Below are positions 5,347-60,968 of a stretch of DNA of 64,000 nt, in pieces. Each line of letters starts with the position of its first letter. Position 1 is the stretch's first letter. The stretch covers positions 7,071 through 71,070 of the forward strand of contig JBHPJW010000003.1 of assembly GCA_042567505.1 (NCBI GenBank), read 5' to 3'. The position numbers and the translations under genes are program-made. This DNA is from Fibrobacterota bacterium (lineage in GTDB: Bacteria > Fibrobacterota > Fibrobacteria > UBA11236 > JADFYW01). A model generated the notes under the pieces. It worked only from the letters and a program-made list of their open reading frames with translations, ran no database searches and was not told the DNA's origin.

Positions 5347-5486
5347 GACAGAGACAATAGATATCACTTCGATATTCGATAGTTATGTATTCCGCATAGG
5401 TAAATGTTCGCTATGATGGGCTGCAGGGTGTACCTGATACACTTACTGGGACGACAACGATAAAATAAGCACTACATTATCTACCT

Positions 5487-5753
5487 ATGCAGAACCAAAA
5501 ATCTTCAAACGCGAAAACAAACAATCCGGTTCAGGAGTTGGACCTGACGGGAGTGGAATGTCCTCTTAATTATGTGAAAATCAAGGTGAGGCTGGCGAAA
5601 CTGGAAGTGGGAGAACGGATAATGGCAATTATTGAAGGGGAAGAGTCCCTGAAAAGCGTATCGACTTCTCTGGATATGGATGGCCAGAAGATTGTCTCCA
5701 TGGACCCGATTGGAAACGAAAAACACGCGCTGATTGTGGAAAAGCGACAATAG
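5487..5753 (+). CDS. TusA/SirA-like sulfurtransferase family protein
   Basis: 88 aa. LDLTGVECPLNYVKIKVRLAKLEVGE matches the DxxGxxCPxP-type active-site loop and the size of the TusA family. Confidence 0.7.
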   Translation: MQNQKSSNAKTNNPVQELDLTGVECPLNYVKIKVRLAKLEVGERIMAIIEGEESLKSVSTSLDMDGQKIVSMDPIGNEKHALIVEKRQ

Positions 5754-5759
5754 GTAATC

Positions 5760-6722
5760 ATGACGAGGATCACTGTGGGAAGCAGGGGGAGCCTGCTGGC
5801 GGTCACTCAGACTGAGTGGGTTATAAACAGGCTGCGAAAAGCGCATCCAAACCTTGAGTTGGACCACAAGATCATTAAAACCACCGGAGATCTGGATCAG
5901 AAGACCAGGCTGGACAAGCTTGCCGGCATGGGCGTGTTCGTCAAGGAGCTACGCACGGCCCTGCTTAACGGAGGCATAGACTGCGCTGTCCATTCCCTGA
6001 AAGATGTGCCGGAAGAAGAGCCGGAGGGGTTGACTCTGGCCTGCTTCCCGGAAAGAGAAGACGCCCGGGACGTGTTCATTTCCAGAGGCTGCAGGTTTTA
6101 CGAACTGTCCGCCGGAAGCAGGGTGGGGACGGGCTCCCCAAGGCGGGTACTGCAGCTTGAGAAAATCAGGCCTGATTTAAAATATGTGTCTCTGCGAGGC
6201 AATCTGGACACCAGAATACGCAAAGTCCGGGAGGGAAAGTTGGACGGCATTGTGGTGGCGGCCGCAGGGGTAAAAAGGCTGAACCGGGCGGAAGAAATTA
6301 TCCATTACTTTTCCTTTGAGCAGATGATACCCGCCATTGGCCAGGGGGCTTTGACCATTGAGTGCCGCAGCGCGGATACGCAGAGCCTAAGGACTGTGAA
6401 AATCATCAATGATGACCTTACCGAGGGCGCGGTGAGGCTGGAACGGGAATTCATGAACAGGGTGGGAGGGGGGTGCAAGGCACCCATGGCCAGTCATGTC
6501 TACTTTACCGGCGGGGGCCTTCGCATGATGGCCATACTGGGAGATCTGAAGAAAAAAAAATGGAGCAGGAGTGAAAGGACAGCCGGCCTGGATGGAACAG
6601 AAGAACTGGTAGAGGAGATAAGCGGAAACATCATTGAAGATTGCAGGGACCGCGGCATTCCCCTTCCCAGGGACCTTCCGGAAAACGCGCTGTTACAAGG
6701 AACCGATTCGATTGACGCCTGA
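5760..6722 (+). CDS. hemC: hydroxymethylbilane synthase (porphobilinogen deaminase)
   Basis: ITVGSRGSLLAVTQTEWV, KIIKTTGD, AVHSLKDVP and LRGNLDTR are characteristic HemC blocks. Confidence 0.95.
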   Translation: MTRITVGSRGSLLAVTQTEWVINRLRKAHPNLELDHKIIKTTGDLDQKTRLDKLAGMGVFVKELRTALLNGGIDCAVHSLKDVPEEEPEGLTLACFPEREDARDVFISRGCRFYELSAGSRVGTGSPRRVLQLEKIRPDLKYVSLRGNLDTRIRKVREGKLDGIVVAAAGVKRLNRAEEIIHYFSFEQMIPAIGQGALTIECRSADTQSLRTVKIINDDLTEGAVRLEREFMNRVGGGCKAPMASHVYFTGGGLRMMAILGDLKKKKWSRSERTAGLDGTEELVEEISGNIIEDCRDRGIPLPRDLPENALLQGTDSIDA

Positions 6723-6723
6723 G

Positions 6724-7476: not shown

Positions 7477-8750
7477 CGGAACAGATGTTTGAAAAAGCAA
7501 AAATGTTGATTCCGGGCGGAGTTAATTCTCCGGTCAGGGCCTTTGCATCAGTGGGCAGGGACCCGGTCTTTATCGCTTCTGCCGGGGGGCCTTATGTTTA
7601 TGATAACCAGGGCAAAGAATACATAGATTATGTCGGTTCCTGGGGCCCGATGATACTGGGCCATAATCATCCCGCCGTGCGCGAGGCGGTTATCAAGGCG
7701 GCGGAGAAGGGAACCAGTTTTGGCGCCTGCACCCAAGCGGAAGTGGAATTCGCCGACATGATTTGCGGGATCATGGATTCCATACAGATGGTACGGCTGG
7801 TGAATTCCGGTACTGAAGCCACTATGAGCGCTGTCAGGCTGGCCAGGGGGGTCACGGGAAAGGACCTTATTATTAAGTTCCGCGGGTGCTATCATGGGCA
7901 TGGAGACAGTTTTCTGATTGAGGCCGGTTCCGGGGCGCTGACTTTTGGCCAACCCTCCAGCCCGGGGGTGACCAAGGGCACGGCCCAGGGGACCCTGCTG
8001 GCGGATTACAATGATCTGGTATCTGTGGAGCGGTTATTCGATAAGTATGGCCAGGACATTTCCTGTGTCATTCTGGAACCTGTGGCCGGAAACATGGGAG
8101 TGGTGCCTGCGGAGCGGGAGTTCCTGACCGGTTTAAGGAAGCTGTGTGATATAAACGGCAGTTTGCTGATTTTTGATGAAGTAATGACCGGTTTCCGGGT
8201 GGGCTTGCAAGGGGCTCAGGGACTTTATGGCATCAGTCCCGATCTGACCGCCATGGGAAAAGTGATTGGCGGGGGCCTTCCGGTGGGCGCTTATGGCGGC
8301 CGCAGGGAAATCATGGAGCAGTTGAGTCCGGCCGGACCGGTCTATCAAGCCGGCACCCTCTCGGGAAATCCCCTGGCGACGGCCGCGGGAATAGCTGTGC
8401 TCAAGCAACTTCAACTCCCCGGCTTTTACCAAGGCCTTGAAGAGCTGGCGCGAAAGTGGGAAGGGGACCTGCGCGCGGTCCTTGAGGCTTCGGGAATATC
8501 CCATACCATCAACCGGGTGGGGTCCATGATGACGCTTTTCTTCACGGATGGTCCGGTTGGCAACTATGCCGACGCGGTGAAATCAGATACGGAAAAATAT
8601 GCCGGGTGGTTTCGTGCCATGATGGATAATGGCGTTTATCTGGCGCCTTCGCAATTTGAGGCCGGTTTCCTTTCCTCCGCCCATGATGAATCAGTTCTGG
8701 AAAGAACAGCCGAGGCCGCGGCGAAGTCGCTTGAGACGATGAAAAAATGA
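7473..8750 (+). CDS. hemL: glutamate-1-semialdehyde 2,1-aminomutase
   Basis: LIPGGVNSPVRAF, VNSGTEATMSAVRLARG, FDEVMTGFR and GTLSGNP. ATGA start/stop overlap with hemD. Confidence 0.95.
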   Translation: MTEQMFEKAKMLIPGGVNSPVRAFASVGRDPVFIASAGGPYVYDNQGKEYIDYVGSWGPMILGHNHPAVREAVIKAAEKGTSFGACTQAEVEFADMICGIMDSIQMVRLVNSGTEATMSAVRLARGVTGKDLIIKFRGCYHGHGDSFLIEAGSGALTFGQPSSPGVTKGTAQGTLLADYNDLVSVERLFDKYGQDISCVILEPVAGNMGVVPAEREFLTGLRKLCDINGSLLIFDEVMTGFRVGLQGAQGLYGISPDLTAMGKVIGGGLPVGAYGGRREIMEQLSPAGPVYQAGTLSGNPLATAAGIAVLKQLQLPGFYQGLEELARKWEGDLRAVLEASGISHTINRVGSMMTLFFTDGPVGNYADAVKSDTEKYAGWFRAMMDNGVYLAPSQFEAGFLSSAHDESVLERTAEAAAKSLETMKK

Positions 8751-8951
8751 CGTGTTGGAGAGCGAAAATTCATTTGTCCTGAGGTCATCATGGTTGGGGC
8801 CTCATTCCCCGGAGGAAGCACGTCCTTATAAGCAGAAACCGGTAATCAGTTCGGAAAGGGGATTGAAAAAAACAGATTCCGTTCTGCTAAGGGCGCCTGC
8901 CGAGAACTTGAGGTGTCCATGGCAGCTGTCTGCAAGCCCGACTGCCGGCCA

Positions 8952-10142: not shown

Positions 10143-10368
10143 AGGGTTATTGTTTAAGGATTTAAAAAGAAAACAATTACGTTTACAAGAAAATAAAAAC
10201 TATTCCGGGCCATGGTAAATTTTGTTGAGATGGGAAAAATGAACGGCCTGAGCTGCGCACAGTATCCATTTCCCTCATGCTTTAGTCAAAGCTGTTTTGA
10301 CAATGAATTCAACTCCATTGAAATGGGGACCGCGAGCCGAAAAAGAGCTATATTACCGCATGAAAAAA

Positions 10369-10773
10369 GGAAAGCGGGTTGGATGATTGCTGTCAGGTTT
10401 ACTTCTGATGGAGGAAAGTCCGGGCACCGCAGGACAGGATGCTGGTTAACGGCCAGTCCCGGTGACGGGAGGAAAGTGCCACAGAAAAAATACCGCCGAT
10501 GGACCCGGTTCTTCGGATCACAGGTAAGGTTGAAATGGCGAGGTAAGAGCTCACCGCGCTCCTGGTAACAGGTGCGGCAGGGCAAACCCCATCCGGTGCA
10601 ATACCAAATAGAGGGGAAGATTCCGGGTTTTCCCGGGGTCCCGGGGCGGTCCGTCCCGGCAAACTCCCGGGTAGGTAGCTTGAGGCTGGTGGCGACATCA
10701 GTCCCAGATGGATAATCATCCCGGTTCCCGCATAAGGAACCGTGACAGAACCCGGCTTATAGACCCGCTTTCC
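10369..10773 (+). ncRNA. rnpB: RNase P RNA, bacterial type A
   Basis: Conserved blocks: GAGGAAAGTCCGGGC (10411-10425), ACAGAAAAAATACCGCC, GGTAAGGTTGAAATGGCGAGGTAAGAGCTCACC, GGCAAACCCCATCCGGTGCAA and ACAGAACCCGGCTTAT (10745-10760). A perfect 11-bp P1 pairs GGAAAGCGGGT (10369-10379) with ACCCGCTTTCC (10763-10773). End coordinates are +/- a few nt. Confidence 0.9.
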
Positions 10774-10988
10774 TATCTCCTTCATGATTCTTCAGCTATT
10801 ATTTTGACGGTGGATTCGCAATGACCGTCTATGTGTCTCCGGGTCAAGCCTGGGATGACAATCCCGGGCTGTGTCAGATGTCTGGTTCCTTTGGATTGGG
10901 CTTTTGATATGCTTTTGTCACCGGGATTTTTTTGTAATTTGTAGGAACTGTTGAGGAATAATAAATAGAAGATTTTGGATCGCAGAGC

Positions 10989-12845
10989 ATGGATTGTAGT
11001 AAGTTTCCCCTTTTCCCTCCCGTAGGCGGAATTCATGAATTCCACCTACGGGAGGGGGGTGGCCATGCTCTTTTACTATCCCTGATAATGGTTTTCTGTT
11101 TGGGTTCAGATATTTATGCTAAAGAGACCAGGGCATTTAAGGCCACACCGGGCGCGGTCCGGGCGGAAACTCTTCCCGAGGACTTCTCAACAAGGGTGGA
11201 TTCCATCGCTTTTCGGATATTTGACGCTTTTGACGGATCCCGGGTAAACACCTCAGTGGAGGAAGAAATATTTAAACTTGGCAATCTCCTGCACATAGAG
11301 TCTTCTCAGGTAACAGTCCGGAGAAGGCTGCTGTTTGAAAAAGGCGATGTTATCAACAAGGAATTGTTGATGGAAACGGAAAGACTGCTTCGCAAAGAGG
11401 AATTTCTGGCCGAAGCCATTCTGGAAGTCCTGCAAAACAAACAGGGGGGAGCCGGAATCATAGTCAATACCTTTGATCAGTTTTCAACCATTCCGGCCTG
11501 GGGTTTTGGGAAACCCGCTGAGGAATGGGAATACTGGTTCGGGCTGGTGGAAAGCAACCTGGTGGGAACCGGACAGAAAATAGGCATGTTCTACAGTCAT
11601 GACATAGACAGGAATACCTATTGGGGGCTGTATGAGAATAAGGCCTTTCTCTTTAAAAACCTCCATCTTTCCGGATTGCTGGGCCGTTCCAGCGACGGAT
11701 ACAAGTACAATTATACCTTCGCCAGGCCCCTGGTATCTAAAAAACAGGAATGGGGATATTCCGTTTCTGGAGAAAGTAAAAAAGCCACTCAATTCTATTA
11801 TCTGGATGCGGACGTACCGGGAGAAGCGCGGCGGCGGGCCGATAATCCAGTGCAGGTAACCTCCATGCTGGTGACCCAGGAGGTGCCGGCTTCGGGGAAG
11901 TTGTATGAGTACCGGGACGTGGTAGACCATAATTTTTCCGGGAGCATCACCCGTTCTTTCGGTATCAAGCACAAATTCAATCTCATGTCGTCTTTCGTAT
12001 GGAACGAGAAATATCAGTCCGGTGATCCGGATGGTTATTATGCATTATCGACCCTGTATGACAGTACAGAATATGATCTCGGTTACCTTCCCCCCAAATA
12101 CCAGCTGGATTTCAGAAGGGATTTTCTGCTTGGTTTGTCGCTGTCTTATTTTCAGGTTAACTACAAGACCGTAAAAAACTTCAGGAATTTAAAGTGGAGC
12201 GAAGATATCGAGGTCGGCTTTAGAATTACCAACAGCATATCCCGGAACATGAAAGCGTTGGGAGCCAAGAATTCCGATCTCTACTTTACCCACACCCTGG
12301 TTTATAAAGATGTTTGGACTTCGGCGCATTTTTTAAGCACCAGCCTTTCTTCAAATTACTTTCTGGATTACTCGGGAAATTTTGAGGATGGGAGCATCAC
12401 CCATGTGGCCGAGTATCAAATGAAACCCATGCCCGTGACATCCACCTATTTTTCTTCAAACTGGACCAGTTACTTTGCCAGAGAACCAAGCTCCCAGTTG
12501 CTGCTGGGAGGTGAAGAGGGATTAAGCGCCTATCCCAACCGGTTCTTTGCCGGGCAGGCGAGGCTGTTCATGCAGCTGGAACAACGCTATTTTCCCAATC
12601 TGGAATTCGCTACCGGAGTTCCCGCTTTCGCGGCCTTTCTCAACGCCGGGGACGCCTTTTCGTCATACCGTCAATTCGAGTGGAACAGCCTGCATTATTC
12701 AGCCGGAGTAGGAGTGAGGATAGGGGCCACCCGTTCGGTCCAGAAGATCGTGAATCATTTGAATTTCTCTTTTCCCCTGGATCCGAAATACAGAGATATC
12801 CTCTCCAGCTGGCGGTTCACGGTGACCGCCAAGGCCAATTTATGA
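10989..12845 (+). CDS. Omp85/BamA-superfamily outer-membrane protein (one POTRA-like domain plus beta-barrel)
   Basis: POTRA-like segment VDSIAFRIFDAF...VTVRRRLLFEKGDVINKELLMETERLLRKEEFLAEA. The long C-terminal region has alternating-hydrophobic strands and ends ...SWRFTVTAKANL. The start is uncertain because a 42-bp palindrome lies 26 nt after the ATG. Confidence 0.6.
   Translation: MDCSKFPLFPPVGGIHEFHLREGGGHALLLSLIMVFCLGSDIYAKETRAFKATPGAVRAETLPEDFSTRVDSIAFRIFDAFDGSRVNTSVEEEIFKLGNLLHIESSQVTVRRRLLFEKGDVINKELLMETERLLRKEEFLAEAILEVLQNKQGGAGIIVNTFDQFSTIPAWGFGKPAEEWEYWFGLVESNLVGTGQKIGMFYSHDIDRNTYWGLYENKAFLFKNLHLSGLLGRSSDGYKYNYTFARPLVSKKQEWGYSVSGESKKATQFYYLDADVPGEARRRADNPVQVTSMLVTQEVPASGKLYEYRDVVDHNFSGSITRSFGIKHKFNLMSSFVWNEKYQSGDPDGYYALSTLYDSTEYDLGYLPPKYQLDFRRDFLLGLSLSYFQVNYKTVKNFRNLKWSEDIEVGFRITNSISRNMKALGAKNSDLYFTHTLVYKDVWTSAHFLSTSLSSNYFLDYSGNFEDGSITHVAEYQMKPMPVTSTYFSSNWTSYFAREPSSQLLLGGEEGLSAYPNRFFAGQARLFMQLEQRYFPNLEFATGVPAFAAFLNAGDAFSSYRQFEWNSLHYSAGVGVRIGATRSVQKIVNHLNFSFPLDPKYRDILSSWRFTVTAKANL
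11015..11056. repeat. 42-bp near-perfect palindrome (20 of 21 arm positions pair)
   Basis: CCCTCCCGTAGG-c-GGAATTCA|TGAATTCC-a-CCTACGGGAGGG, read directly. It contains two EcoRI sites. Confidence 0.9.
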
Positions 12846-12906
12846 GTGTTGGCAAGCGGTCAGGGGATATGACGCGCGAGCAGGCAGCGGCTGGAATGAC
12901 AGCCGT

Positions 12907-12934
12907 TCCTGACCCCTGACCACTGATCCCTGAC
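12907..12934. repeat. heptamer stutter tCCTGAC CCCTGAC CACTGAT CCCTGAC, with a complementary GGTCAGGGG at 12858-12866
   Basis: Read directly in the convergent spacer between the Omp85-like gene and the CDP-alcohol transferase gene. Confidence 0.85.
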
Positions 12935-12952
12935 TACTATTTATTCCCAATC

Positions 12953-14188
12953 TCATAGATACTTCTTCAGCACTTTCAAGTTGCCCACAATATAATCCAA
13001 TCCGGAAGCCAGCGTTACCAGAGTCACACCATACATGAGGGTGTAGGGTATCATTTCCCAGGCCTGCCTCCAGTATGGCAGGTTGGGCCAGTTTCGCATG
13101 ATAACAGTATCGACTATGGCTCCTATGAGGATCGTGATTACTACCCCGACCTGGATACCGGTCTTCCATTTTCCGCTTTTGCGGGCGTCTATGATTATGC
13201 CTTCACCGGCGGCCAGTGTGCGCAGGGTCTCCACGGTGGCCTCCCTGAAATAGATAAGAGCTATCATCCAGACATTGGCGTAGTCAGAAGCGAGGAAGCA
13301 CAGGAAAATACTCATGTTGGAAATCTTGTCCGAAAAGGGGTCCAGGTACTTGCCCAGTTTGGAAACCTCGTCGAATTTGCGCGCCAGATATCCGTCCAGG
13401 CCATCGCTGACGGCGAAGAAAATGACCATCAACAGGGCCACTGTCTTGAAGATGAGATTATTGTCCTGATAGGTCAGGTCGTTGTCATAAAAAAAGACCC
13501 AGATAAAAATAGGGCTGAGGATTATCCGGCTGAAAGTTAATTGGCTGGCCACGGAAAAGGGCTTCCTGTGATCAGGGTCTCGGTAATAAAAATACAGGTA
13601 ACCGATGCTGGTGGCGAAAATCAAGAGCAGGGAAATGACCATGCTTATGTCGGAAAGATTCCGTACCTCCTTGGCGATCTTCCAAACTTTTAGGGTAACC
13701 TGCTCTACTCTGAGCGCATGGAGAATCATGGTGATGTTTAAAGAAGCGGTGGTTATTTTGCCCCAGAGGGAATGAAGGGGCAGGGCTTTCTCCTCCTTGA
13801 ACAGGCTTACCGAAAACGCCAGATAAAACAGGTTACGCATGGTGATGGCGATAAGTCCAAAGCACAGGATAGTGGGAAAATCACCGGTAGGGCGCCATAC
13901 AATCCTTAAAAACAGGATAAGGAAAATGGTGTTGGCCAGGGACTTTTCCAGCAGTCCGAACCAGAACTTATGCAGCGGTTTTTCGATATCCTCCTGGTGC
14001 AATTTAAAAGAGGTATAAAATCCCATCATCAGGGAGACACAGAGAAGAATCGTGGCCGGGATATTTTTATCCAGCATCAGACAGGCAATTGCTCCCACAA
14101 AGGCGCCCAGTTTGCAGGTCAGCCAGACGCGGCCGGCCTTTCTTTTTGGCTCCAGAGTTGATTCTAATTGCGGATTTGGGTCAGTCAT
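12953..14188 (-). CDS. CDP-alcohol phosphatidyltransferase family protein with ~200-aa N-terminal polytopic extension
   Basis: Complete catalytic motif DGLDGYLARKFDEVSKLGKYLDPFSDK (D-G-x2-A-R-x8-G-x3-D-x3-D) at about aa 255-281 of 411. The N-terminal half is hydrophobic helices carrying a degenerate copy of the motif region. Confidence 0.8.
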   Translation of the reverse strand: MTDPNPQLESTLEPKRKAGRVWLTCKLGAFVGAIACLMLDKNIPATILLCVSLMMGFYTSFKLHQEDIEKPLHKFWFGLLEKSLANTIFLILFLRIVWRPTGDFPTILCFGLIAITMRNLFYLAFSVSLFKEEKALPLHSLWGKITTASLNITMILHALRVEQVTLKVWKIAKEVRNLSDISMVISLLLIFATSIGYLYFYYRDPDHRKPFSVASQLTFSRIILSPIFIWVFFYDNDLTYQDNNLIFKTVALLMVIFFAVSDGLDGYLARKFDEVSKLGKYLDPFSDKISNMSIFLCFLASDYANVWMIALIYFREATVETLRTLAAGEGIIIDARKSGKWKTGIQVGVVITILIGAIVDTVIMRNWPNLPYWRQAWEMIPYTLMYGVTLVTLASGLDYIVGNLKVLKKYL

Positions 14189-14197
14189 AAAGAATCC

Positions 14198-15877
14198 TTA
14201 TTTCTTTGTAAGCAGCTGCCTGGCGTGTTTTAAGGTCGCCTGTGAAGTTTCATCACCCATCATGCGGGCGAGTTCCGGGATCCTTTCGGCTTCGGTAAGC
14301 AGTTTTACCAGCGTCAGGGTTCGTCCTCCTGAGGAGGATTTGAGTACTTTTACCTGGTGGGAAGCGCGTGCCGCCACCTGGTGGAGATGGGTGATTACCA
14401 TAATTTGATGATGGTCAGAGAGTTTCTGCAGGGCCTCCCCGATCCGGTTGGCGGTGATTCCGCCGATGCCTAAATCAATCTCGTCAAAAACCATCAGCGG
14501 AACCGGATCCGCCCCGGCCAGGGCCGTTTTTATGGCAAGCATAATCCTGGAGGACTCTCCTCCGGAGGCGACACGATGAAGGGGTTTAAAACCCTCTCCA
14601 GGATTTGCCGACAACAGGAATTCCAACCGGTCCATCCCTGAGGGGAACAGGGATCCCGCTTCCATCATGAGAGGTTCTCTCTCTTTCCACTGGCAGGTAA
14701 AATCGGCTTTCTCCATCCCCAGATGGGAAAGGTGGGAGTTGACCAGTTTTTCAAACGCTTTGCCGGCTTTTTTTCTCCTTGCGCTCAGAGCCCGGGCCGC
14801 TGCGCACACAGAAGCAAAGGCTGTTTCTATTTCCGATTTGAGGCTTTCACCGTCGCCTTTATAATCGAGAAGCATATCCAGGGCATGTTTCCGTTTCTCT
14901 CTGAGTTCAATCAGCCCGGCGGTGCGGAGTTTGTACTTGGACTTCAGCTTTTGCAGAAAGGCCAGCCTGGCGTTTAATGCATCAATGGTTTCCGGATCCG
15001 CTTCCTGGGGAATTTCATAAGCCTGGATTCTTCTCAGGATATCCGTGAGGCCGGCTTTGGCATCTTCCATTTCCCGCACTGTCCCGGATAAAGCGGAGGA
15101 CCGGGATTCAAGGTATGCGAGGGCGTCTCTGAGACTTGAAAGGTTATTCATTATTCCATGCCTGTCGTCTTCCAGGAGGGCCAATCCGGCCCGCACCTGT
15201 TCAGTGGTTTTTTCCAGGTTGGAGAAAACGGCCAGACGCTCTTCAATTTGCTCTTCTTCACCCATGCGCAGACCGGCTTCCTCCAGTTCTTTATATTGGA
15301 AAGAAAAAAAGTCCTGCTGTTCCCTGGTTTTTTGGAAGGTATGCTCCCTTTCCTCCCAGGTTTCCAGCAGGGATTTCCATCCCCGGTATTTTTCCGCAAA
15401 AGCCTGTTGGAGAGCTTCCAGTTTCCCAAAGCGGTCTATATAGGAAAGGTGTGTGGCCTGGTCCAGAAGGGACTGCTGCTTATGCTGTCCATGAAGGTCC
15501 AGCAGGCAGCCGCCGGCTTTTTTCATGGTAGCCAGGGAAACAATGGATCCGTTTATGCGGCAGCGGTTCTTCCCGCCCCGGAACAATTCTCTTTCCAGAA
15601 TGAGTTCGTTTTCGCTGGTGTCAATTTCCTGGATATCCAGGAGGCGGGAAAGTTCATCGGATTCGGGAACATCGAACACAGCCTCAATGTTAAGTTTATC
15701 AGATCCTTTTCTTATTAATTCCGGATCGATTCTGGCCCCGCTGATGGTTTTTAAGGCATTGATGATAATAGTTTTTCCCGCTCCGGTTTCTCCCGTGATT
15801 ACCGTGAACCCGGTGTTCCAGTTGAGATGCAGGGAATCAATAATAGCGAAGTTGCGGATTCTCAGTTCAATCAGCAT
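14198..15877 (-). CDS. recN: DNA repair protein RecN
   Basis: MLIELRIRNFAIIDSL...ITGETGAGKTIIINAL, a long coiled-coil middle, and C-terminal SGGESSRIMLAIK...MVFDEIDLGIGG. Confidence 0.95.
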   Translation of the reverse strand: MLIELRIRNFAIIDSLHLNWNTGFTVITGETGAGKTIIINALKTISGARIDPELIRKGSDKLNIEAVFDVPESDELSRLLDIQEIDTSENELILERELFRGGKNRCRINGSIVSLATMKKAGGCLLDLHGQHKQQSLLDQATHLSYIDRFGKLEALQQAFAEKYRGWKSLLETWEEREHTFQKTREQQDFFSFQYKELEEAGLRMGEEEQIEERLAVFSNLEKTTEQVRAGLALLEDDRHGIMNNLSSLRDALAYLESRSSALSGTVREMEDAKAGLTDILRRIQAYEIPQEADPETIDALNARLAFLQKLKSKYKLRTAGLIELREKRKHALDMLLDYKGDGESLKSEIETAFASVCAAARALSARRKKAGKAFEKLVNSHLSHLGMEKADFTCQWKEREPLMMEAGSLFPSGMDRLEFLLSANPGEGFKPLHRVASGGESSRIMLAIKTALAGADPVPLMVFDEIDLGIGGITANRIGEALQKLSDHHQIMVITHLHQVAARASHQVKVLKSSSGGRTLTLVKLLTEAERIPELARMMGDETSQATLKHARQLLTKK

Positions 15878-16769
15878 CAGGTCCCTTCAATGCGTGAGAA
15901 CCGCTCCAACCGAGTTTGTTGCGAATGGATTTTAAGAAAGAAGAACCTCTGGGCCGCAGGATATGCGCGCTTTCTTTATGTTTCGTGAAGCAGGCTGTGT
16001 AGCTGGGGCGTATGCGGAATTCATGGCGTCCGTCAATTACCATTTTCACGAATTTTTTTCGGTCATTTTCACTGGTTATGCTGATTTTATGCTCAGCCGG
16101 AAGAATGATGGGACGGACCGAAAGCGGTTTGGGATTAATGGGCGTGAGCAGGATGGATTCTGATACCGGGTAAATAATGGGACCGCCGGCAGAAAGGGAA
16201 TAGGCTGTGGAGCCTGTTGGCGTGCTTACCAGCAGACCGTCCACCCAGTAATTGGACAGGTATTTGCCGCGCACCTCTACCTTGAGATCGATAAGCTCCA
16301 ATCCCATTTTACCGGTGAAGACAACATCATTCAAGGCCAGGTCCTCAAAGACCTTTTTCCGGTTTTCGAACACCCGGACTCTCAACATCATTCTTTTGGT
16401 TAGCGTGTACCGGCCTTTTTCAATCAGATCCAGGGTGTTTTTTAAATTGTCGAGCGTTACATCAGATAAAAACCCCATCCTGCCGAGATTGACGCCCAGC
16501 AGAGGGATATCGCTGCCGCTTATCAGCCTGGCAGCCGACAGAAAAGTCCCGTCACCGCCAAGAGAGAGAATCAGGTCTGCGTTTTTTTTCAGATACTTGT
16601 CACTCCTGAGGATCAGTGATTTCGAAGCCATGTTTTTCAGGTTTTTATGAAGTAGCAGCCTGACCTTAGGATGACGCGCGGACCATTTGTCAATGATGGT
16701 GAGGGCGGGCGCCACCTGGTCTATCTCCTTGTATGCCACTATGCCGATGGTGTTAATTTGCTTTTTCAT
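15867..16769 (-). CDS. nadK: NAD kinase
   Basis: MKKQINTIGIVAYKE..., GGDGTFLSAAR, NLGRMGFL and STPTGSTAYSLSAGGPI. The start is moved to the MKK codon at 16769. It overlaps recN by 11 nt and nnr by 17 nt, and nadK-recN synteny is conserved. Confidence 0.9.
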   Translation of the reverse strand: MKKQINTIGIVAYKEIDQVAPALTIIDKWSARHPKVRLLLHKNLKNMASKSLILRSDKYLKKNADLILSLGGDGTFLSAARLISGSDIPLLGVNLGRMGFLSDVTLDNLKNTLDLIEKGRYTLTKRMMLRVRVFENRKKVFEDLALNDVVFTGKMGLELIDLKVEVRGKYLSNYWVDGLLVSTPTGSTAYSLSAGGPIIYPVSESILLTPINPKPLSVRPIILPAEHKISITSENDRKKFVKMVIDGRHEFRIRPSYTACFTKHKESAHILRPRGSSFLKSIRNKLGWSGSHALKGPDAD

Positions 16770-18351
16770 CTTCGATTTCCCTGATGACAGCCGGGATGTG
16801 GTTGAGCACATCCGAGGCAGTCATGCCCAGGATGCCGGTTTGATGACGGGCCAGGTCGGCGGACGCGCTGTGGATATACACTCCCAATCCCGATGCGGGC
16901 ACAGGATCCAGAAGGCAGAGAAGCGCGGTGATGATTCCGGCCAGGACATCCCCGGATCCGGCGGTTGCCAGGCCGGGATTTCCGCTGGGGAGTATGGTGC
17001 TGGTGCCGTCGTGTGAAGTGATGATGGAAGTGGGTCCTTTTAACAGGACATTCAAACCATATTTTTTGGAGATGGATTTCGCATGCTGCAGGTGCTGCAA
17101 GGGAGAGTCATACCTGTATGTTCCACCCATGCGTTTGAACTCTCCGGCGTGCGGGGTGGCTATCACCTGTTTAAAGGATGAAGAAGCACGTCCGATCCCC
17201 TTGTTGGCCGCCGGACAGAAGAACTGCAGGCCGTCCCCGTCGACTACCAGTCTGGTGGAAATTTCAGGTACCAGCTTCAGCAGGAATTTGATGGTGTCCG
17301 CGTGTTTTCCCAGCCCGGGACCCAGCAGCACGGCATCCGCCCATTCAATCAGGGGCAGCAGTTCCTTTACATGGCTTTGGGAAAAGTGGGGGGCGTCTTC
17401 GCCTGTTTTCCCTGATGAGGTCTTTCTCTTTCCTATGGGAAGAGAGATGATTTCAACAGTATGATGGCAGATTTCATTATGCAGGCCGGAAGGGACCGCC
17501 AGCTTAACCATGCCGGCCCCCGCTTTTAGGGCGGCGTGCGCCGAAAGCACAGCTGCGCCGTGCATGCCTTTGGAGCCGGCTATTATCAGGACCTTTCCGG
17601 TGGAATATTTATGGGCGTCATAGGCTCTTTCGGGGTAAACCTCGTATGCGTCTTCTTTTCTGAAAAGCTCTGTCCGGGACGGCTGTAACCGCAGCTGGCT
17701 TTCGGGAAAACACAGGCTGTCAAAGTAAATTGACCCGAACCTCTGGCAGGAAGGATAAAAAATTGCAGATAGTTTCAGCGTACCCAGGCTCATCGTGGCC
17801 ATGGCATGCACATGCAGGCCCACTTCAGATTCATCGGTAAAAAGTCCGGAGGGGATATCAATGGAAAGCACGGGAAGGGTACTCTGGTTTATCAGCCTGA
17901 TACAGTCCGCTGTGATCCCGGCGGCCTCTCTGGTGATTCCGGCGCCCAGAAGCCCGTCTATGACCAGGGCGGTGTTCTGTGGAAATTGCAGGTCTTCAGC
18001 CTTTTTTACCGGCTGGATTTTCAGTTTAGCCCTTTTTATTTTATCATGCAGCAGCCTGGTTTCCGGACTGTAGCCTTTTTCAGAGAACAGCTGAAAGACC
18101 TTGACTTTAAATCCCCGGGACCGGGCCAGAAGGGCGGCCTGGATTCCGTCGGCTCCATTATGGCCTTTGCCGCATACGAATACCCAGGGGCGGGAACCGG
18201 GACGGGCATAGGAAGAATGAAGGGACCTGGCTGTATTAAAAACAGCCTGTCCAGCTTGAGCTATCATGTTTGATTCGGAAATACCGCATTTTTCTCTGGT
18301 CCAGGTTTCCACCTGTTTCATCTCAGAAGCAGTTAAAACGGCAAGAGTCAT
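16753..18351 (-). CDS. nnr: bifunctional NAD(P)H-hydrate repair enzyme (epimerase/dehydratase)
   Basis: YjeF-N part (CGKGHNGADG) followed by a carbohydrate-kinase-like part (GSKGMHGAAVLSAHAALKAGAGMV, GPGLG, GSGDVLAGII). Confidence 0.9.
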   Translation of the reverse strand: MTLAVLTASEMKQVETWTREKCGISESNMIAQAGQAVFNTARSLHSSYARPGSRPWVFVCGKGHNGADGIQAALLARSRGFKVKVFQLFSEKGYSPETRLLHDKIKRAKLKIQPVKKAEDLQFPQNTALVIDGLLGAGITREAAGITADCIRLINQSTLPVLSIDIPSGLFTDESEVGLHVHAMATMSLGTLKLSAIFYPSCQRFGSIYFDSLCFPESQLRLQPSRTELFRKEDAYEVYPERAYDAHKYSTGKVLIIAGSKGMHGAAVLSAHAALKAGAGMVKLAVPSGLHNEICHHTVEIISLPIGKRKTSSGKTGEDAPHFSQSHVKELLPLIEWADAVLLGPGLGKHADTIKFLLKLVPEISTRLVVDGDGLQFFCPAANKGIGRASSSFKQVIATPHAGEFKRMGGTYRYDSPLQHLQHAKSISKKYGLNVLLKGPTSIITSHDGTSTILPSGNPGLATAGSGDVLAGIITALLCLLDPVPASGLGVYIHSASADLARHQTGILGMTASDVLNHIPAVIREIEDEKAN

Positions 18352-18472
18352 TTTGGTCCCAAAGATTTGAATATGCAGATAAAATAGAAAAAACCGGGCA
18401 TTGTAATTTGGAAAAGGTTTAGATCTCCCAATTTCCAGTTGCCATGGAACGGTTATTAAGTGTATCCTTTTT

Positions 18473-18565
18473 AGGATTGAGGATTAAAAAGCCGAGAGTA
18501 GGGAGAAAGGAGTATGGAGTGTTAAAACTCCACTCTCCCCGCTCCCCACTCCCTACTAAAAAAAA
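18473..18565. repeat. stutter hairpin: AGGATTG AGGATTA, then (NNNGGAG)x3 facing (CTCCNNN)x4, then A8
   Basis: TAGGGAG AAAGGAG TATGGAG tgttaaaa CTCCACT CTCCCCG CTCCCCA CTCCCTA ct AAAAAAAA, read directly in the divergent nnr / STAS-gene spacer. Confidence 0.85.
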
Positions 18566-18608
18566 GCTCAGTACTCCAAAGGAATATGGCCTATGGAGAA
18601 TGTAAGCT

Positions 18609-19751: not shown

Positions 19752-19770
19752 AACGCGGTTTATAGTAATT

Positions 19771-19860
19771 TGTCATTAGCACCCTCGCTTCGCGGGACGC
19801 GTCATTAGTCTTGGGTTATCGGTGTTTTTAAATGACGAACGACTAATGACCAATGACGCG
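19771..19860. repeat. GTCATTA/AATGAC stutter hairpin
   Basis: tGTCATTAGc (19771-80) and cgcGTCATTAGTC (19798-19810) face AATGACG AACGACT AATGACC AATGACG (19831-19858). A perfect 10-bp inverted repeat pairs 19801-19810 with 19841-19850. Confidence 0.85.
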
Positions 19861-19909
19861 CCCAAAGCCCCGGATATAGAGCAACAGGGCGTTAATCACA
19901 AATGATAAA

Positions 19910-47007: not shown

Positions 47008-47254
47008 CTAAATGAATTTCCTAGCGTTAATGTTCCATGTACCAGGTAAAAAAATACCGGGGCCAAGGTATCTCCCTTTTGCCCTTAATCCCTAATATAT
47101 ATTATAACAACCTGGCGGGAGAAAGTCTTTCTTTTGATAAAAAGGCCGGTTTATAGGGAAAATGCAGGTTTTTTTATTGTCGGTTATCATAGAAAGACGG
47201 CCCTGCCGTAGGATAAAATAGCATATTGTATACAAATGAGCGGGAAAGGCGATT

Positions 47255-49674: not shown

Positions 49675-49695
49675 AATCAGGGATCAGAAGTCAGA
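49675..49695. repeat. heptamer stutter AATCAGG GATCAGA AGTCAGA
   Basis: Read directly in the spacer between floA and the split gene. Confidence 0.8.
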
Positions 49696-49753
49696 AAGGA
49701 ATGATGTTTCATACTTTAATGCCTGTCAATGATTGCTGTCCTTAGATTTACTC

Positions 49754-55031: not shown

Positions 55032-55100
55032 ACAGGATGTACAGGATGGAATGGATTTAAGAAATCATGTATATCATCCATTTTATATCCTTTATATTGT
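55032..55100. repeat. nonamer stutter pair: ACAGGATGT ACAGGATGG AATGGATTT facing ATCCATTTT ATATCCTTT ATATTGTAT
   Basis: Read directly inside the 588-nt ORF-free spacer. Further stutters lie at 54943-54963, 55286-55306 and 55504-55524. Confidence 0.75.
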
Positions 55101-55521
55101 ATCTGCCAGGTTATATTATGATATATGTTTCGTAAAATATTCAAAATTAACTTTATGAATATCATCTAGTGTTACGTCCAGTTAATTCATGTTCTTCCTG
55201 ATTCCGGACAAGCCGGAATGACTTTTCCGGGGCATATAACATGAAAAAACTTATTGGATAGTTCACTAGTTAGGTGAGCATTGGCGGATTTTGGGTTTTT
55301 GATTTACTGGAGGTGAAACATATCATGTTTACTACTCCATCCAGTCTAAAAAACAAGATTTTACCCGGACACTACTGAATTGAAATAATGAATATTTTCT
55401 CGCCCTCCGAAGCTGGACCAGCCGCGGCGAAACGCAGTGGAGACGGGACAGTGAAGGAGAACGGCATTGGTGATATAAAGTAAGGGCTCGTAATTTAAAA
55501 TCCGGAAGTTGGAATTAAAAA

Positions 55522-58386: not shown

Positions 58387-58406
58387 GGCTTTGGATTAAT
58401 ATAGCT

Positions 58407-58480
58407 ATTGAGGATTGAGTATGTGCTCGGGTAGATGCCTTCCCCCTACTGACTCAATCATGCCAATCCCAAACCCTAAA
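58407..58480. repeat. ATTGAGG ATTGAGT stutter facing CTCAATC ATGCCAA TCCCAAA CCCTAAA
   Basis: An 8-bp inverted repeat pairs GATTGAGT (58413-20) with ACTCAATC (58452-59), in the spacer between the beta-barrel gene and the kinase gene. Confidence 0.8.
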
Positions 58481-60107
58481 ACCTGTATGCCAGCTCCGCA
58501 AACAGGGATCTGTCCTCAATGCTGTTCTGCTCCTGGAATCCCGGGAAGGGAATCTCTATATCCAGGGAAAGATTGAGTTTGCCGGTGAATGGATAAAAGA
58601 GGTACGCGTGCATCATCAAAGACTTGATGTCGGTGTTGGCGGCCTCGGCGCCGCTGGTATAATCGATAAAATCATATTCCAGGCCCAGGGAGCCGTCCAG
58701 GGACTTTTTTTCATACCGCAGAAAAAAAGACCATCCCATGTTGAGATAGGAATCTTCCTTGGGTACGAAGTAAGTGGACAGCAGCATGTTCAGTCTTTGC
58801 CTGAGCTTGAGGTTTAAAAGCTCCCCTTTCAATCCCGCTTCCATGCTGAAATACTTGGTGAACGAGAATGCCAGGCCCGGCTCAAGTCCGGTACGGATGG
58901 TGGCGTACAGGGTTTTGGCAGTGTCATTGAGGGTGGGGATGCTGTCGAACTGGGTGTAATCAATGGTCTCAGACCGAAACAGAAGATTAATGGAGCCGGC
59001 CGCCGGCAGAAGGCTTAACAGCACTTCGATGGTCCGGCTGTTTTCTTTGTCAGGCCCCAGGGGATAGTTGATATAGGTCAGGTATTCCCGGCTGTAAAAC
59101 AACTCTAGGCTGGCATTGTCATTGAGAAAATACCGCCAGTCAAGGGTGAGGCCTCTCAGTGTATAATTATTTTCCGTGGAATCCGGGAAGCGTTTTCTGG
59201 AGCCGGCAAGGTCAACGTCCAGATCGGTCCGTTCTCCCATGTAGGCATAGGTTGCCTGGACGAGGGCCTTGGTAAAATCCTCGTAACCGGATTTCTGATG
59301 GTTATGACGCTTTATTTCGCCAGTGTAATTAAGCCCTATCCGATAGGACGCCCTGGATTGAAAGAAAGCGCCCGGTTTGAAAATGATGTTCCGGAAACTG
59401 GTGGCATTATCGGTGTGGTTCTGTTTTACTCCCACAATACTGTTGAGATTAAGATTCATATTGCCGTTGAAGAGTTCTCCTCCAAAGTCATTCTCCAGCC
59501 GTTCATACAGGTATTCGTTTAAAACTGTCAGCTTGTTATAGGTGTACCGGAAAAAGGAGTTCGCGTTCCTGGTTTTAAACACATATTCAGACCCATAGGT
59601 CAGGTCCCTGGTTCCTGGAATAACGTTTGACGAATCGGGGTCCGATGGATCGTACTCCAGTTCCAGGTCCTCTTCATCGCTGCCATAATAGTCGGCCTGC
59701 ATGGCGATGATGTTGTCAAAAGTACGCTGTGGTTTTTCCGGCAGGCTGTCTTTTTTCAGGGCTTCAGCGTCACGGATGGTTTTTTCCAGCAGGGATTCCA
59801 GTTCCTTTAAATCTTCTTGTGATTCCAAGGCGGTTCGTTCCTTCTCAGGCTCCCCTTCCACTTCCCAGGAGGAAAGCAGATCCAGGGCCTGTTCGCAATC
59901 GCCGCTTTCGGCAAGCATACGGGTTTTTTCAAGCAATCCGGGGATTTGGGCGGAATCGTGTTTGATTTGAAGTGAATCCCTCAATTCCAGGTAGGTTTCG
60001 CAGTAGAAGTCCCCGGCATCAGGGATCTGCGTCAGGCCAGGCACCATAGCAGAAAGGGTGATGAGAACAAGAGGGAAACCGCGGTATTTAGATAAAAGAC
60101 AATTCAA
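58476..60107 (-). CDS. hypothetical outer-membrane beta-barrel protein with helical N-terminal region
   Basis: Signal-like N-terminus and acidic helical first ~130 aa, then strand-rich sequence ending ...SLFAELAYRF (OMP-type C-terminal Phe). No family recognised. Confidence 0.45.
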   Translation of the reverse strand: MNCLLSKYRGFPLVLITLSAMVPGLTQIPDAGDFYCETYLELRDSLQIKHDSAQIPGLLEKTRMLAESGDCEQALDLLSSWEVEGEPEKERTALESQEDLKELESLLEKTIRDAEALKKDSLPEKPQRTFDNIIAMQADYYGSDEEDLELEYDPSDPDSSNVIPGTRDLTYGSEYVFKTRNANSFFRYTYNKLTVLNEYLYERLENDFGGELFNGNMNLNLNSIVGVKQNHTDNATSFRNIIFKPGAFFQSRASYRIGLNYTGEIKRHNHQKSGYEDFTKALVQATYAYMGERTDLDVDLAGSRKRFPDSTENNYTLRGLTLDWRYFLNDNASLELFYSREYLTYINYPLGPDKENSRTIEVLLSLLPAAGSINLLFRSETIDYTQFDSIPTLNDTAKTLYATIRTGLEPGLAFSFTKYFSMEAGLKGELLNLKLRQRLNMLLSTYFVPKEDSYLNMGWSFFLRYEKKSLDGSLGLEYDFIDYTSGAEAANTDIKSLMMHAYLFYPFTGKLNLSLDIEIPFPGFQEQNSIEDRSLFAELAYRF

Positions 60108-60789
60108 TGAGCATGTGCCGGGAAAGTTCTCTGGTAAATATTCCTTTTTTCAAGGCCAGTTTAAAATACTTTCTGGCTATTTCTCCGTCTTTAGAAGACT
60201 GGGGTACAAACCAGAGGCTTCCTCCTAATTCGTATTTCATTTTATGGTACAGGCCCAGTCCGAAGTAAGCGTCATACTGGCCGGGGGAATACATGAGGCA
60301 TTCCCTGAGCAGTTCAAATCCCCTGCGACCGAATTTATAAGCAGACAACATTTTATGTTCCTCCACCAGGAAGAGAGCCATCAGACCGTTCCACAAGCCG
60401 CACAGAAACCGGGCATCGGGAGGTCCACCTTCTTTTCTCTGTTTGAATTTTAAAATCTGTTTTTTAACATTTTCCCCAAAAGCTTTCATTTTCAGGGAAT
60501 CATTTTCCTTTAACTGTATCCAGCTCAAAAGGAAATCAGACAGGTCTTTCCGGTTTTTACTGCCCGCGAGGATGTATTGCCGGGCTTCCTCAAAATTATT
60601 ATCAAACACTTCTTCTATGCCCCTGTTGATAAGGGAGGTATCTATTTGTTGGGGAAAGGAAATACTGAACCAGAACAGGATAAGCAGCCAGATGCGATGG
60701 GGGAAAAAAATCAAGTGAGAAGGAGGAAGTTTGTCACGCCGGGCGGAGCTTGCCCCGGGCCTCGATCCTGGGCCCCGGCGTCTTTCCAT
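60088..60789 (-). CDS. hypothetical exported helical protein
   Basis: Hydrophobic segment IWLLILFWFSISF, then helical TPR-like text. The tracked GTG start at 60888 lies in a CTCACTT stutter, so I use the ATG at 60789, but the start is uncertain. 20-nt overlap with the next gene. Confidence 0.4.
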   Translation of the reverse strand: MERRRGPGSRPGASSARRDKLPPSHLIFFPHRIWLLILFWFSISFPQQIDTSLINRGIEEVFDNNFEEARQYILAGSKNRKDLSDFLLSWIQLKENDSLKMKAFGENVKKQILKFKQRKEGGPPDARFLCGLWNGLMALFLVEEHKMLSAYKFGRRGFELLRECLMYSPGQYDAYFGLGLYHKMKYELGGSLWFVPQSSKDGEIARKYFKLALKKGIFTRELSRHMLIELSFI

Positions 60790-60883
60790 AGCAAATCTTG
60801 GTTCGAGTGTTCTTTGGAACGATTCAGGGTCCCGGCTGTCGCCGTGGCAGGCAAACCCGGAATGACAGAATTGTCCCATACTT

Positions 60884-60968
60884 CTCACTTCTCACTTTAA
60901 TTCTACCCTCTGAATTCCAAAGGTCTTTCACTTAATTCAGAATCCATAATTCAGAATTCATAATTATA
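60884..60968. repeat. CTCACTT CTCACTT ... AATTCAG AATCCAT AATTCAG AATTCAT AATTATA stutter block
   Basis: Read directly. An exact tandem heptamer lies at 60884-60897 and a five-unit AATNNNN array at 60934-60968. Confidence 0.85.

Follow-up and report, generated by a model that had tools for sequence, protein, structure and literature searches.

Degenerate heptanucleotide arrays in the intergenic spacers of a Fibrobacterota bacterium and their possible origin by 7-nt slippage at hairpins

The DNA stretch analyzed here (the window; 64,000 nt of contig JBHPJW010000003.1, assembly GCA_042567505.1) belongs to a member of the Fibrobacterota, and its intergenic spacers carry short arrays of head-to-tail 7-nt units. 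This period-7 spacer pattern, to which a note made earlier from the sequence alone had drawn attention, is real. The arrays are of the same kind as the short tandemly repeated repetitive (STRR) sequences of cyanobacteria and the heptamer repeats of Xanthomonas, Beggiatoaceae and Bacteroidetes; what is new here appears to be the host phylum alone, a known kind of repeat being extended to a new lineage. As for their origin, replication slippage in a 7-nt register seeded at hairpins, with function secondary at most, has in our judgment an even chance of being the correct explanation.

All window statistics refer to 64 kb of one genome with approximately 6.8 kb of spacer DNA. The gene map was built from long open reading frames (ORFs) and later corrected in three places, namely by adding the RNase P RNA at 10371-10775, by moving the start of iPGM and by noting a probable late start for CutA1. 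In the spacers, the identity of bases k positions apart amounts to 0.310 at lag 7 and 0.293 at lag 14, as opposed to approximately 0.268 at the remaining lags from 4 to 20 (standard error 0.0055). On the corrected gene map this corresponds to z = 7.5 at lag 7 and 4.1 at lag 14; the first map had yielded a lag-7 z of approximately 7, with no other lag from 4 to 13 prominent. Coding DNA exhibits period 3 as its sole signal and no lag-7 excess. Identical 4-mers at a distance of 7 nt are likewise in excess in the spacers (139 versus 38 ± 8 expected), with 88 at lag 14 and 30-64 at the remaining lags from 4 to 13.

Arrays were detected by a single-diagonal local score (+1/-1), with 100 dinucleotide-preserving shuffles per spacer serving as control. 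Twelve period-7 arrays score at least 8 (0.9 ± 1.0 in shuffles) and 11 score at least 10 (0.13 in shuffles), while periods 4-6 and 8-12 remain at or near background in the same scan (period 8: 2 versus 0.7; period 9: 3 versus 0.8). Independently, Tandem Repeats Finder (TRF) reports period-7 arrays at 12908, 18527, 19831, 20740, 23661, 35461, 60880 and 60934, all of them in spacers except for 60880, which lies at a spacer boundary. Exact 7+7 duplications wholly within spacers number five (5368, 12908, 20740, 23666 and 35461), against an expectation of 0.54-0.65, and five were reached in none of 500 shuffles; in coding DNA there are two, where 3.5 are expected. Two further exact duplications are borderline, one overlapping a called start (60880) and the other lying in the probably mis-extended CutA1 ORF (34901). 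Head-to-tail 7-nt units are thus present in excess of composition and confined to non-coding DNA, as the earlier note had claimed, and its count of five exact non-coding duplications is confirmed against approximately 0.6 expected.

The signal extends beyond the recognizable arrays. The lag-7 z is still 3.5 once every segment scoring at least 7 is masked, and 25 of the 30 spacers of at least 80 nt have a higher identity at lag 7 than the other lags have on average. Detectable arrays occur in 13 of the 30 spacers of at least 60 nt, so that the statement that almost every spacer carries such units applies to the diffuse excess and not to the arrays themselves. The loci, in order along the window, are the following.

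5368-5381: exact duplication TTCGATA x2, abutting the called start (5367) of minus-strand ORF 4990-5367; no inverted partner.
10931-10943: TTTGTAA TTTGTA, score 6, at chance level on its own.
12908-12938: CCTGACC CCTGACC ACTGATC CCTGACT ACT, in a convergent spacer, where it forms the right arm of a two-tier hairpin.
18470-18485: weak units TTTAGGA TTGAGGA, directly upstream of the following array pair.
18496-18557: inverted array pair AGTAGGG AGAAAGG AGTATGG AGTG, loop, CTCCACT CTCCCCG CTCCCCA CTCCCTA CT, in the divergent STAS-yjeF spacer (partner p = 0.005).
19831-19857: AATGACG AACGACT AATGACC AATGAC, in a convergent spacer (partner p < 0.005).
19894-19913: weak second array AATCACA AATGATA AATCAT, in the same spacer as the preceding one.
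20740-20764: TCAGGAG TCAGGAG TCAGTTG TCAG, between two minus-strand genes (partner p < 0.005).
23505-23539: period-8/16 array AAACAATC AAACATTC AAACAATC AATCATTC, overlapping the stop codon of 22250-23506 (TRF score 57).
23633-23680: adjoining arrays AATTAAA AATTGAA AATTTAG GATT and CACACCT CACAACT CACAAC, separated by 1 nt from the ATG at 23682.
25171-25201 and 25315-25346: AT-rich inverted array pair ATTCTGG ATTTTAA ATTTTGA ATT and AATCTAG AATTCAA AAGTTAA AATTTAG AATT, in a convergent spacer.
34898-34914: ATGGTGT x2, where the longest ORF 34901-35437 begins.
35461-35495: AATTACG AATTACG GATTAAA GATTACG GATTAAA, in a convergent spacer; its partner, AATTCGTAATT at 35568-35578, is present in one copy (p < 0.005).
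39954-39993: AGTCAGG AGTCAGT GGTTAG, then AACTCAT AACTCAA TACT, between two plus-strand genes; no partner (p = 0.63).
45790-45824: weak units AGTTAGG AGTTATA AGT and TGACATC TGTCATC, in the left arm of hairpin 45786-45880 upstream of iPGM.
47030-47048: ATGTTCC ATGTACC AGGTA, weak.
49675-49696: AATCAGG GATCAGA AGTCAGA A, three units with a common TCAG core (partner p = 0.13).
55032-55056: 9-mers ACAGGATGT ACAGGATGG, in a 588-nt spacer.
55286-55305: GGATTTT GGGTTTT TGATTT, weak (score 7), in the same 588-nt spacer.
58407-58422: ATTGAGG ATTGAGT AT, with a complement ACTCAATC at 58452-58459 (p = 0.09).
60880-60897: ACTTCTC x2.6, exact, overlapping the called start of 60088-60888.
60934-60965: AATTCAG AATCCAT AATTCAG AATTCAT AATT.

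The arrays are short (14-35 nt), and the longest perfect tandem tract in the window comprises 2.6 units. Within the list of loci given in the earlier note the stronger arrays stand, whereas those at 10931, 45791, 47076, 55286 and 58407 (scores 6-7) do not individually rise above chance. Neither the 8-mer nor the 9-mer arrays that it added are enriched as a class, and the 8-mers at 47076 were detected by neither TRF nor the diagonal scan; that at 23505-23539, however, is strong and the only such array in the window with a period other than 7. The ATGGTGT duplication probably lies in a 5' spacer and not in coding DNA, since the CutA1 domain starts only at residue 79 of the 178-aa ORF 34901-35437.

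A typical unit consists of a core of approximately 4 nt followed by approximately three variable bases, in keeping with the earlier description of a 4-6-nt core with a varying remainder: mismatches cluster by column and approximately four positions are kept. The words are diverse, with few core classes among them (cores include TCAG, AATT, GGAG, TGAC and CACA). The xxxTCAG/CTGAxxx class, found in five spacers (among them 12908, 20740 with 20812, 39954 and 49675), is the only one to recur across loci as such, and the (A/G)ATTxxx class occurs at 23633, 25171, 25315, 35461, 58407 and 60934. Other words belong to their locus, namely GGAG/CTCC at 18496-18557, AATGACx at 19831, CACAACT at 23661 and CTCACTT at 60880. 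Counted at lag 7, CTGA/TCAG is observed 10 times (0.12 expected), AATT 10 times (1.1), GTCA/TGAC six times (0.07) and CTCC/GGAG six times (0.19). The presence of many unrelated words argues for a process rather than a single recognition sequence. Within the 64-kb window only the TCAG array recurs as a dispersed non-coding family, and no family has a conserved interior.

Inverted partners were assessed by comparing the best reverse-complement match of each array within 200 nt with 200 shuffled flanks. Partners are significant (p ≤ 0.005) for 18496/18528, 19831, 20740, 25171/25315, 35461 and 60880 and marginal for 12908, 58407 and 60934, while no reverse-complement partner lies within 200 nt of 23633/23661 (p = 0.19 and 0.98), 39954, 49675, 5368, 47030 or 55286. 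The hairpin architecture therefore holds for about half of the strong loci and not for the remainder. The proposed second array of the reverse-complement word is present in two spacers only (18496/18528 and 25171/25315); elsewhere the partner, if any, is a single complement of 8-15 nt. Such complements are GGTCAGGGG at 12855-12866 for the 12908 array (p = 0.085), which runs past the paired part, and TCTGAATT at 60909-60916 in the 60880-60965 region. The 19831 array has complements at 19765-19779 and approximately 19797-19812, and the AT-rich pair 25171/25315 flanks approximately 110 nt with inner hairpins (partner score 16.5 versus 8.7 ± 1.2, p < 0.005).

Four array-bearing spacers fold far better than their shuffles (12846, 18352, 19752 and 25148; z -2.9 to -4.1), with minimum free energy (MFE) z-values of -3.35 for the spacer of the 12908 array and -3.15 for that of the 19831 array. 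The hairpin at 18494-18559 reaches -40.5 kcal/mol as minus-strand RNA (z = -6.4), with five G-U pairs and helices of 6-12 bp split by two single mismatches 7 nt apart; the plus strand reaches -31.5 kcal/mol with no G-U pair. At 45786-45880 the two strands differ as well (-32.5 versus -24.7 kcal/mol), the transcribed strand folding better. The word AAAAAGC stands on both flanks of the 18497-18557 hairpin (18486-18492 and 18561-18567), like a 7-nt target-site duplication, and may well be a chance pair in an A-rich context. Separately, the 236-nt spacer 603-838 contains no heptamer array and folds strongly (MFE -83.9 kcal/mol, z = -2.9), with no Rfam match at the gathering threshold.

In spacers with only one complement opposite several units, an older inverted repeat has grown on one of its arms. 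The clearest case is 19797-19862: the right arm reads GACTAATGAC-CAATGAC-GCGCCC, and the left arm, once reverse-complemented, reads GACTAATGAC-GCGTCCC. The right arm has gained exactly 7 nt by insertion, CAATGAC, a copy of the adjacent TAATGAC. At 20740 the left arm exceeds the right by at least one TCAGGAG unit, the partner ACTGACTCCTGAC at 20812-20824 comprising two units only, and at 12908 and 35461 surplus whole units lie outside the paired part without a complement.

A comparison with other genomes places the pattern. Controls were fumarase- and RecN-anchored loci of other lineages (L001-L161 except L081), 80 of them from the fumarase search; the RecN-anchored ones came from a metagenome scan based on an alignment of 40 Fibrobacterota RecN proteins and the motifs TGETGAGK and DLHGQHxQQ, with relatives of at most 38% identity. 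For the 105 control loci that offer 1 kb of spacer or more, the mean lag-7 z is -0.7 (standard deviation 1.5), and only two loci exceed 2. Array density per kb of spacer is 1.6 in the window, 0.35 in the control loci and 0.25 in nine Fibrobacterota relatives. Among the lineages sampled, the dense period-7 habit is specific to the lineage of the window.

In the relatives, the positions of arrays and hairpins tend to recur while their sequences do not. L162 (RecN 51% identical) contains TTTGGGA TTTGGGA TTTAGGA with AAATCCCAA complements in the spacer syntenic to that of the 12908 array, and the counterpart of this spacer in L081, where the CDP-OH transferase and hypothetical genes converge, forms a plain hairpin. 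The divergent STAS-yjeF spacer, 257 nt with its array hairpin in the window, measures 129 nt in L164 and 71 nt in L168, both without a hairpin. L166 carries GTCTGGA x4, and L170 carries CGCCCGA x4 and GAGTGAA x3. In L081, the closest relative (RecN 62%), hairpin arms stutter in steps of 8-9 nt (783-857 and 8700-8815): upstream of yjeF, CTCTGCGTA CTCTGTGTT CTCTGTGGT stand opposite CCACAGAGAA (CTCTGTG-type), and beside the RNase P RNA, CGCAAAGA CGCAGAGGA CGCAAAGA stand opposite their complement (CGCAAAG/CGCAGAG-type). The habit of stutter-armed hairpins is thus common to L081 and the window, with a different step length. Among the controls, an uncultured Phycisphaerae metagenome-assembled genome (MAG) has (TTCAGGG)4.7 and, 33 nt away, (CTGAACC)4.3 (L038, 3208-3303), the two forming a perfect inverted pair in which the variant unit TTCGGGG has its mirror image, CCCCGAA, on the opposite arm; the pair lies directly upstream of the start of a 549-aa ORF and displays the architecture and the CTGA core of the window in an unrelated phylum. 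In a Bacteroidales MAG, (CACCCAT)13 shows a super-period of 21 nt and closely precedes the start of the fumarase gene at position 251 of the locus (L014, 144-234).

That the host is not a cyanobacterium, as the earlier note had argued from gene content, is borne out by several features. RecN (14198-15877) is 100% identical to a protein of an NCBI 'Fibrobacterota bacterium' contig, which iPGM matches as well; the next RecN relatives are a JGI metagenome contig (62%) and a series of Fibrobacterota/Fibrobacteria MAGs at approximately 50%. Among the products of the window are a sigma-54 activator and its histidine kinase, a weak Por_Secre_tail match and a DUF4423 protein of the type adjoining RecN in relatives. 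iPGM, being approximately 75% identical across several phyla, does not discriminate. The best match of the fumarase in a genome collection is 60% identical (Balneolaceae), with no close relative among the matches. A gene block common to Fibrobacterota contigs (STAS - YjeF - NAD kinase - RecN - CDP-alcohol phosphatidyltransferase - a hypothetical protein of approximately 600 aa - RNase P RNA - aminotransferase) reaches HemD ... DnaX in two relatives. Arrays 12908 and 18496-18557 lie inside this syntenic block, which excludes a cyanobacterial chimera, and G+C is even over the window (0.43-0.56).

One gene of this block is an RNA gene, located as follows.

10371-10775, plus strand: RNase P RNA, bacterial class A (301 bits), syntenic in L081 (8267-8666) and L162 (15378-15820).

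The ORFs 10212-10568 and 10399-10785, which overlap it, are spurious. Downstream of it lies a 42-nt near-perfect palindrome (11015-11056) with 24-nt arms that are 96% complementary (CCCTCCCGTAGGCGGAATTCATGA / TCATGAATTCCACCTACGGGAGGG). The palindrome falls within the first 70 nt of the longest ORF 10989-12845, whose true start may be further downstream. Longest-ORF starts also extend into repeat-bearing spacers in 44201-45820 (iPGM) and 34901-35437 (CutA1); the NCBI iPGM product of 519 aa places the start at 45760 and not at 45820. In general, starts called from the longest ORF are biased upstream. A repeat of another kind occurs in coding DNA on the minus strand (41403-42223), where repeats spaced 87/174 nt lie in a 459-aa protein with RHS repeats and a weak Por_Secre_tail; these are repeats of the protein and have nothing to do with the heptamers.

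The form of the arrays is that of the STRRs of heterocyst-forming cyanobacteria (Calothrix, Nostoc, Anabaena), which the earlier note had taken for comparison: both are tandem, imperfect, non-coding 7-nt units at many loci per genome, with no known function. STRRs use few heptamers (CCCCAGT, TTGGTCA, CAACAGT), with approximately 100 copies of each. AATGACC is the reverse complement of a rotated form of the STRR2 word, TTGGTCA, and AATTACG, GAGTCAG and ATTGAGG presumably resemble Nostoc words. The window differs in that its host is a fibrobacterotal bacterium, its arrays are short (2-5 units), its words are many and mostly locus-specific, and an association with hairpin arms is documented. In cyanobacteria, STRRs serve for the fingerprinting of Nostoc (PMC5088731), and three tandem heptanucleotides have been reported from Calothrix PCC 7601 (PMC4692102).

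The earlier note's suggestion that such a repeat system appeared unreported in a background of this non-cyanobacterial kind did not hold, since they were already described for Xanthomonas (PMC4692102) and for Beggiatoaceae, Thiocystis and five Bacteroidetes (PMC4679880). In Xanthomonas and Nostoc, (GGGANTN)n arrays are intergenic, combine conserved and variable positions and include some inverted pairs (Rehm et al. 2015, PMC4692102). Like the arrays of the window, these GGGAATC (Xanthomonas) and GGGGA(T/C)T (Nostoc PCC 7120) repeats have a conserved core with variable positions and some inverted pairs able to form stem-loops, and at one and the same intergenic site close relatives carry repeats that differ in length and sequence, as the window does against its relatives (PMC4692102). 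They are, however, G-rich and G-quadruplex-capable, with one dominant word per genome and up to 26 units, whereas the window has no dominant word, few G-tracts and at most five units. Assignment to a G-quadruplex heptamer class, which calls for at least four units with a G3+ tract in each, was considered and rejected, as three G3-4 tracts on the minus strand of 18528-18557 are the most that any array offers and the other arrays are not G-rich.

The TAACTGA repeats of Beggiatoaceae, Thiocystis, cyanobacteria and five Bacteroidetes (MacGregor 2015, PMC4679880) are comparable in being direct heptamer repeats of 2-6 copies in the spacers of non-cyanobacteria, including the sister phylum Bacteroidetes. 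They often lie just upstream of start codons, and their CTGA core is also that of the commonest word class of the window. Those repeats, in contrast, use a single exact word with a single orientation toward the gene that follows, while the words of the window are diverse, run in both orientations and often sit on hairpin arms; TAACTGA/TCAGTTA itself is present in 1 + 3 single copies and never in tandem, although kindred words with the CTGA core are tandem. The long simple sequence repeats of Mrazek et al. (2007), as far as they are presented in PMC4679880 and PMC4692102, provide a broader frame. In that account, among the long repeats of genomes with many 5-11-nt units, heptanucleotides are the most frequent; according to PMC4679880, such genomes include Burkholderia, actinobacteria, Xanthomonas and cyanobacteria, and the class shares with the window the dominance of heptanucleotides, a sporadic distribution across phyla and a proposed origin by slippage. 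Also as in the window, units with a length that is no multiple of 3 are kept out of coding DNA. The class is defined, in the same account, on perfect and statistically long repeats, whereas most window arrays are degenerate and would fall below such thresholds. A tree-of-life survey of short tandem repeats (PMC12699852) mentions neither heptamers nor Fibrobacter nor cyanobacteria, and no report of heptanucleotide repeats in Fibrobacterota was found in a literature search that left most subscription-journal papers outside. To what was known, the window adds the footprints of 7-nt insertion in one arm and a CTGA/TCAG core that recurs in arrays of several phyla.

A mutational origin would account for these observations as follows. 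A duplication process with a strict 7-nt step acts over all non-coding DNA, and in coding DNA 7-nt indels shift the frame and are removed; this much the data show. Duplications often begin, as is shown in part, on one arm of a pre-existing intergenic inverted repeat and add whole 7-nt units, probably through slipped-strand mispairing where replication is stalled by the hairpin. Seven nucleotides may be the polymerase-favored register, as Mrazek et al. (2007) proposed; their suggestion, in the form cited by PMC4679880 and PMC4692102, was that this is the length of DNA held by the polymerase. Decay by point mutation would turn the arrays into the diffuse lag-7 signal of nearly all spacers. Occasionally an array may be mirrored on the opposite arm, through intrastrand template switching or selection for pairing, which would produce long hairpins with a mismatch every 7 bp. 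Any function would be secondary and reside at the level of the hairpin, as stem-loops in RNA 5' leaders or at 3' ends, and not in the words. The basis of this reading is the strict spacer-only period, the pervasive weak signal, the diversity of words and the whole-unit asymmetry of arms, including one clean 7-nt insertion; further, sequence is not conserved at syntenic sites, and there is no mobile-element family.

Several points weigh against a purely mutational origin. We know of no organism in which the mechanistic reason for the 7-nt step has been explained. The fold advantage of one RNA strand through G-U pairs at 18494-18559 and 45786-45880 suggests selection on the transcript, although the strand asymmetry is mixed overall and not decisive, two larger differences favoring the transcribed strand and two small ones the opposite. 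The arms of 25171/25315 match at 21 of 24 positions, more than neighboring units do, so that pairing has been maintained or recently copied. Unit mismatches also pile up in particular columns (summed squares 78 versus 63.5 ± 4.5, p ~ 0.0006, in a test with ascertainment caveats and with phases picked by the analyst), which hints at constraint on the cores and is not predicted by neutral decay of once-perfect arrays. Finally, the full scope examined is 64 kb of one genome.

The core pattern of the units, the one-strand G-U pairing and the arm identity at 25171/25315 pull toward function, and two functional readings are therefore retained. In one of them, the hairpins are selected RNA structures, namely stem-loops in 5' leaders or at 3' ends that stabilize, terminate, insulate or are processed, and the heptamer period is merely how their arms are built. 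We regard this as rather unlikely. It would account for the four spacers that fold well beyond their shuffles (z -2.9 to -4.1), for the G-U pairs found on one strand only of the 18494-18559 hairpin, for the better folding of the transcribed strand at 20738-20830 and 45786-45880, for the four strong array loci in convergent spacers, downstream of two stop codons, and for the hairpins of differing sequence at syntenic positions in L081 and L162. Half of the arrays, however, have neither a partner nor a significant fold (23633/23661, 39954, 49675, 5368), surplus units lie mostly outside the paired region, and the non-transcribed strand folds slightly better at 58405-58465 and 60903-60950. Moreover, the strongest hairpin is part of a divergent promoter region, where no gene precedes it whose transcription it could end, and most hairpins are not followed by a U-tract. 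A consensus terminator scan of 12000-27000 found 26 sites (19.5 ± 5 expected), one of which partially overlaps an array hairpin, and thereby lent no support to the terminator or insulator role raised in the earlier note. Intrinsic terminators were rejected as an explanation on this lack of enrichment and on the location of several arrays in divergent or 5' spacers. At gathering thresholds, Rfam recovers RNase P RNA only and no RNA family over any array, and a tRNA scan of the window found none.

In another reading, the arrays would be cis-regulatory and coated by a single-strand binding protein with a footprint of approximately 7 nt (a cold-shock-domain, S1-type or HutP-like ring protein) that would control translation or mRNA decay; by analogy this is conceivable but distinctly unlikely. 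HutP binds UAG triplets at a 7-nt spacing. The reading follows a proposal made for the TAACTGA repeats of Beggiatoaceae, and cold-shock proteins bind heptamer repeats with one protein per unit (PMC4679880). A 4-nt core with three variable positions, as indicated by the column-wise mismatches (p ~ 0.0006), is what spaced contacts would give, and the TCAG/CTGA core of five spacers is found again in TAACTGA (PMC4679880) and in the CTGAACC arrays of L038. At least five unrelated cores are nevertheless not explicable by one sequence-specific protein, and the arrays are found in either orientation, some of them following stop codons. Eight arrays lie 0-50 nt upstream of called starts (5368, 23661, 34898, 60880, 58407, 47030, 45790 and 39976), but this closeness is unreliable given the upstream bias of longest-ORF starts.

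A more far-reaching reading, which we consider improbable, would see the arrays as the footprint of a dedicated trans-acting system, that is, a protein recognizing, propagating or using 7-nt-periodic single-stranded sites, spread horizontally among cyanobacteria, Beggiatoaceae, Bacteroidota, Planctomycetota and the Fibrobacterota lineage of the window. CTGA/TCAG heptamers in all those groups (TAACTGA; CTGAACC in L038; CCTGACC and CTCCTGA in the window), the conserved 4-nt core with variable linkers, and the density of arrays in this genome as against their near absence in sister Fibrobacterota would fit such a system.

Decayed miniature foldback transposable elements with heptamer-built terminal inverted repeats are very improbable. 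Inverted arms around an interior of 6-120 nt, a STAS-yjeF spacer that is 130-190 nt longer than in relatives, as after an insertion, and AAAAAGC on both sides of the 18497-18557 hairpin would agree with them. No interior, however, is shared between any two loci of the 64-kb window, in which only the TCAG array is dispersed; arms are mostly unequal by whole 7-nt units, many arrays lack a partner, and there is no transposase nearby.

It is hardly credible that the arrays are contingency loci, in which heptamer copy number in promoters or leaders would switch the flanking genes by phase variation. In Haemophilus influenzae, copy-number change in such repeats modulates expression. Heptanucleotides are among the simple-sequence-repeat classes catalogued in that species (PMC2651432), and several arrays of the window lie near starts between divergent or tandem genes. 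With 2-5 imperfect units and a longest perfect run of 2.6, however, the arrays are well under high-switching lengths, and the genes on either side (yjeF, iPGM, inositol monophosphatase, CutA) have housekeeping roles and are not surface genes. Chance, an assembly artefact or a cyanobacterial chimera, for which nothing speaks beyond several two-unit loci individually at chance level, is refuted by the shuffle controls, the 105 control loci, arrays well inside a single read length, the syntenic block, which also shows that the contig is not chimeric with cyanobacterial DNA, and the even G+C, and retains virtually no probability.

To our knowledge, neither the origin nor the function of heptanucleotide repeats is known in any organism. 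The window provides a dense and well-resolved example in a distant phylum, in which older palindromes bear on one arm the traces of single 7-nt insertions, although the Fibrobacterota case alone does not make the question of origin testable. For annotation, such arrays yield spurious small ORFs and mis-extended starts, as exemplified by the 72-aa ORF 18419-18637 over the hairpin and by the iPGM and CutA1 starts, and cyanobacteria-like repeat words in a MAG are no evidence of contamination. The near absence of the arrays in sister lineages offers a comparative handle on the mechanism, namely which replication or repair genes differ.

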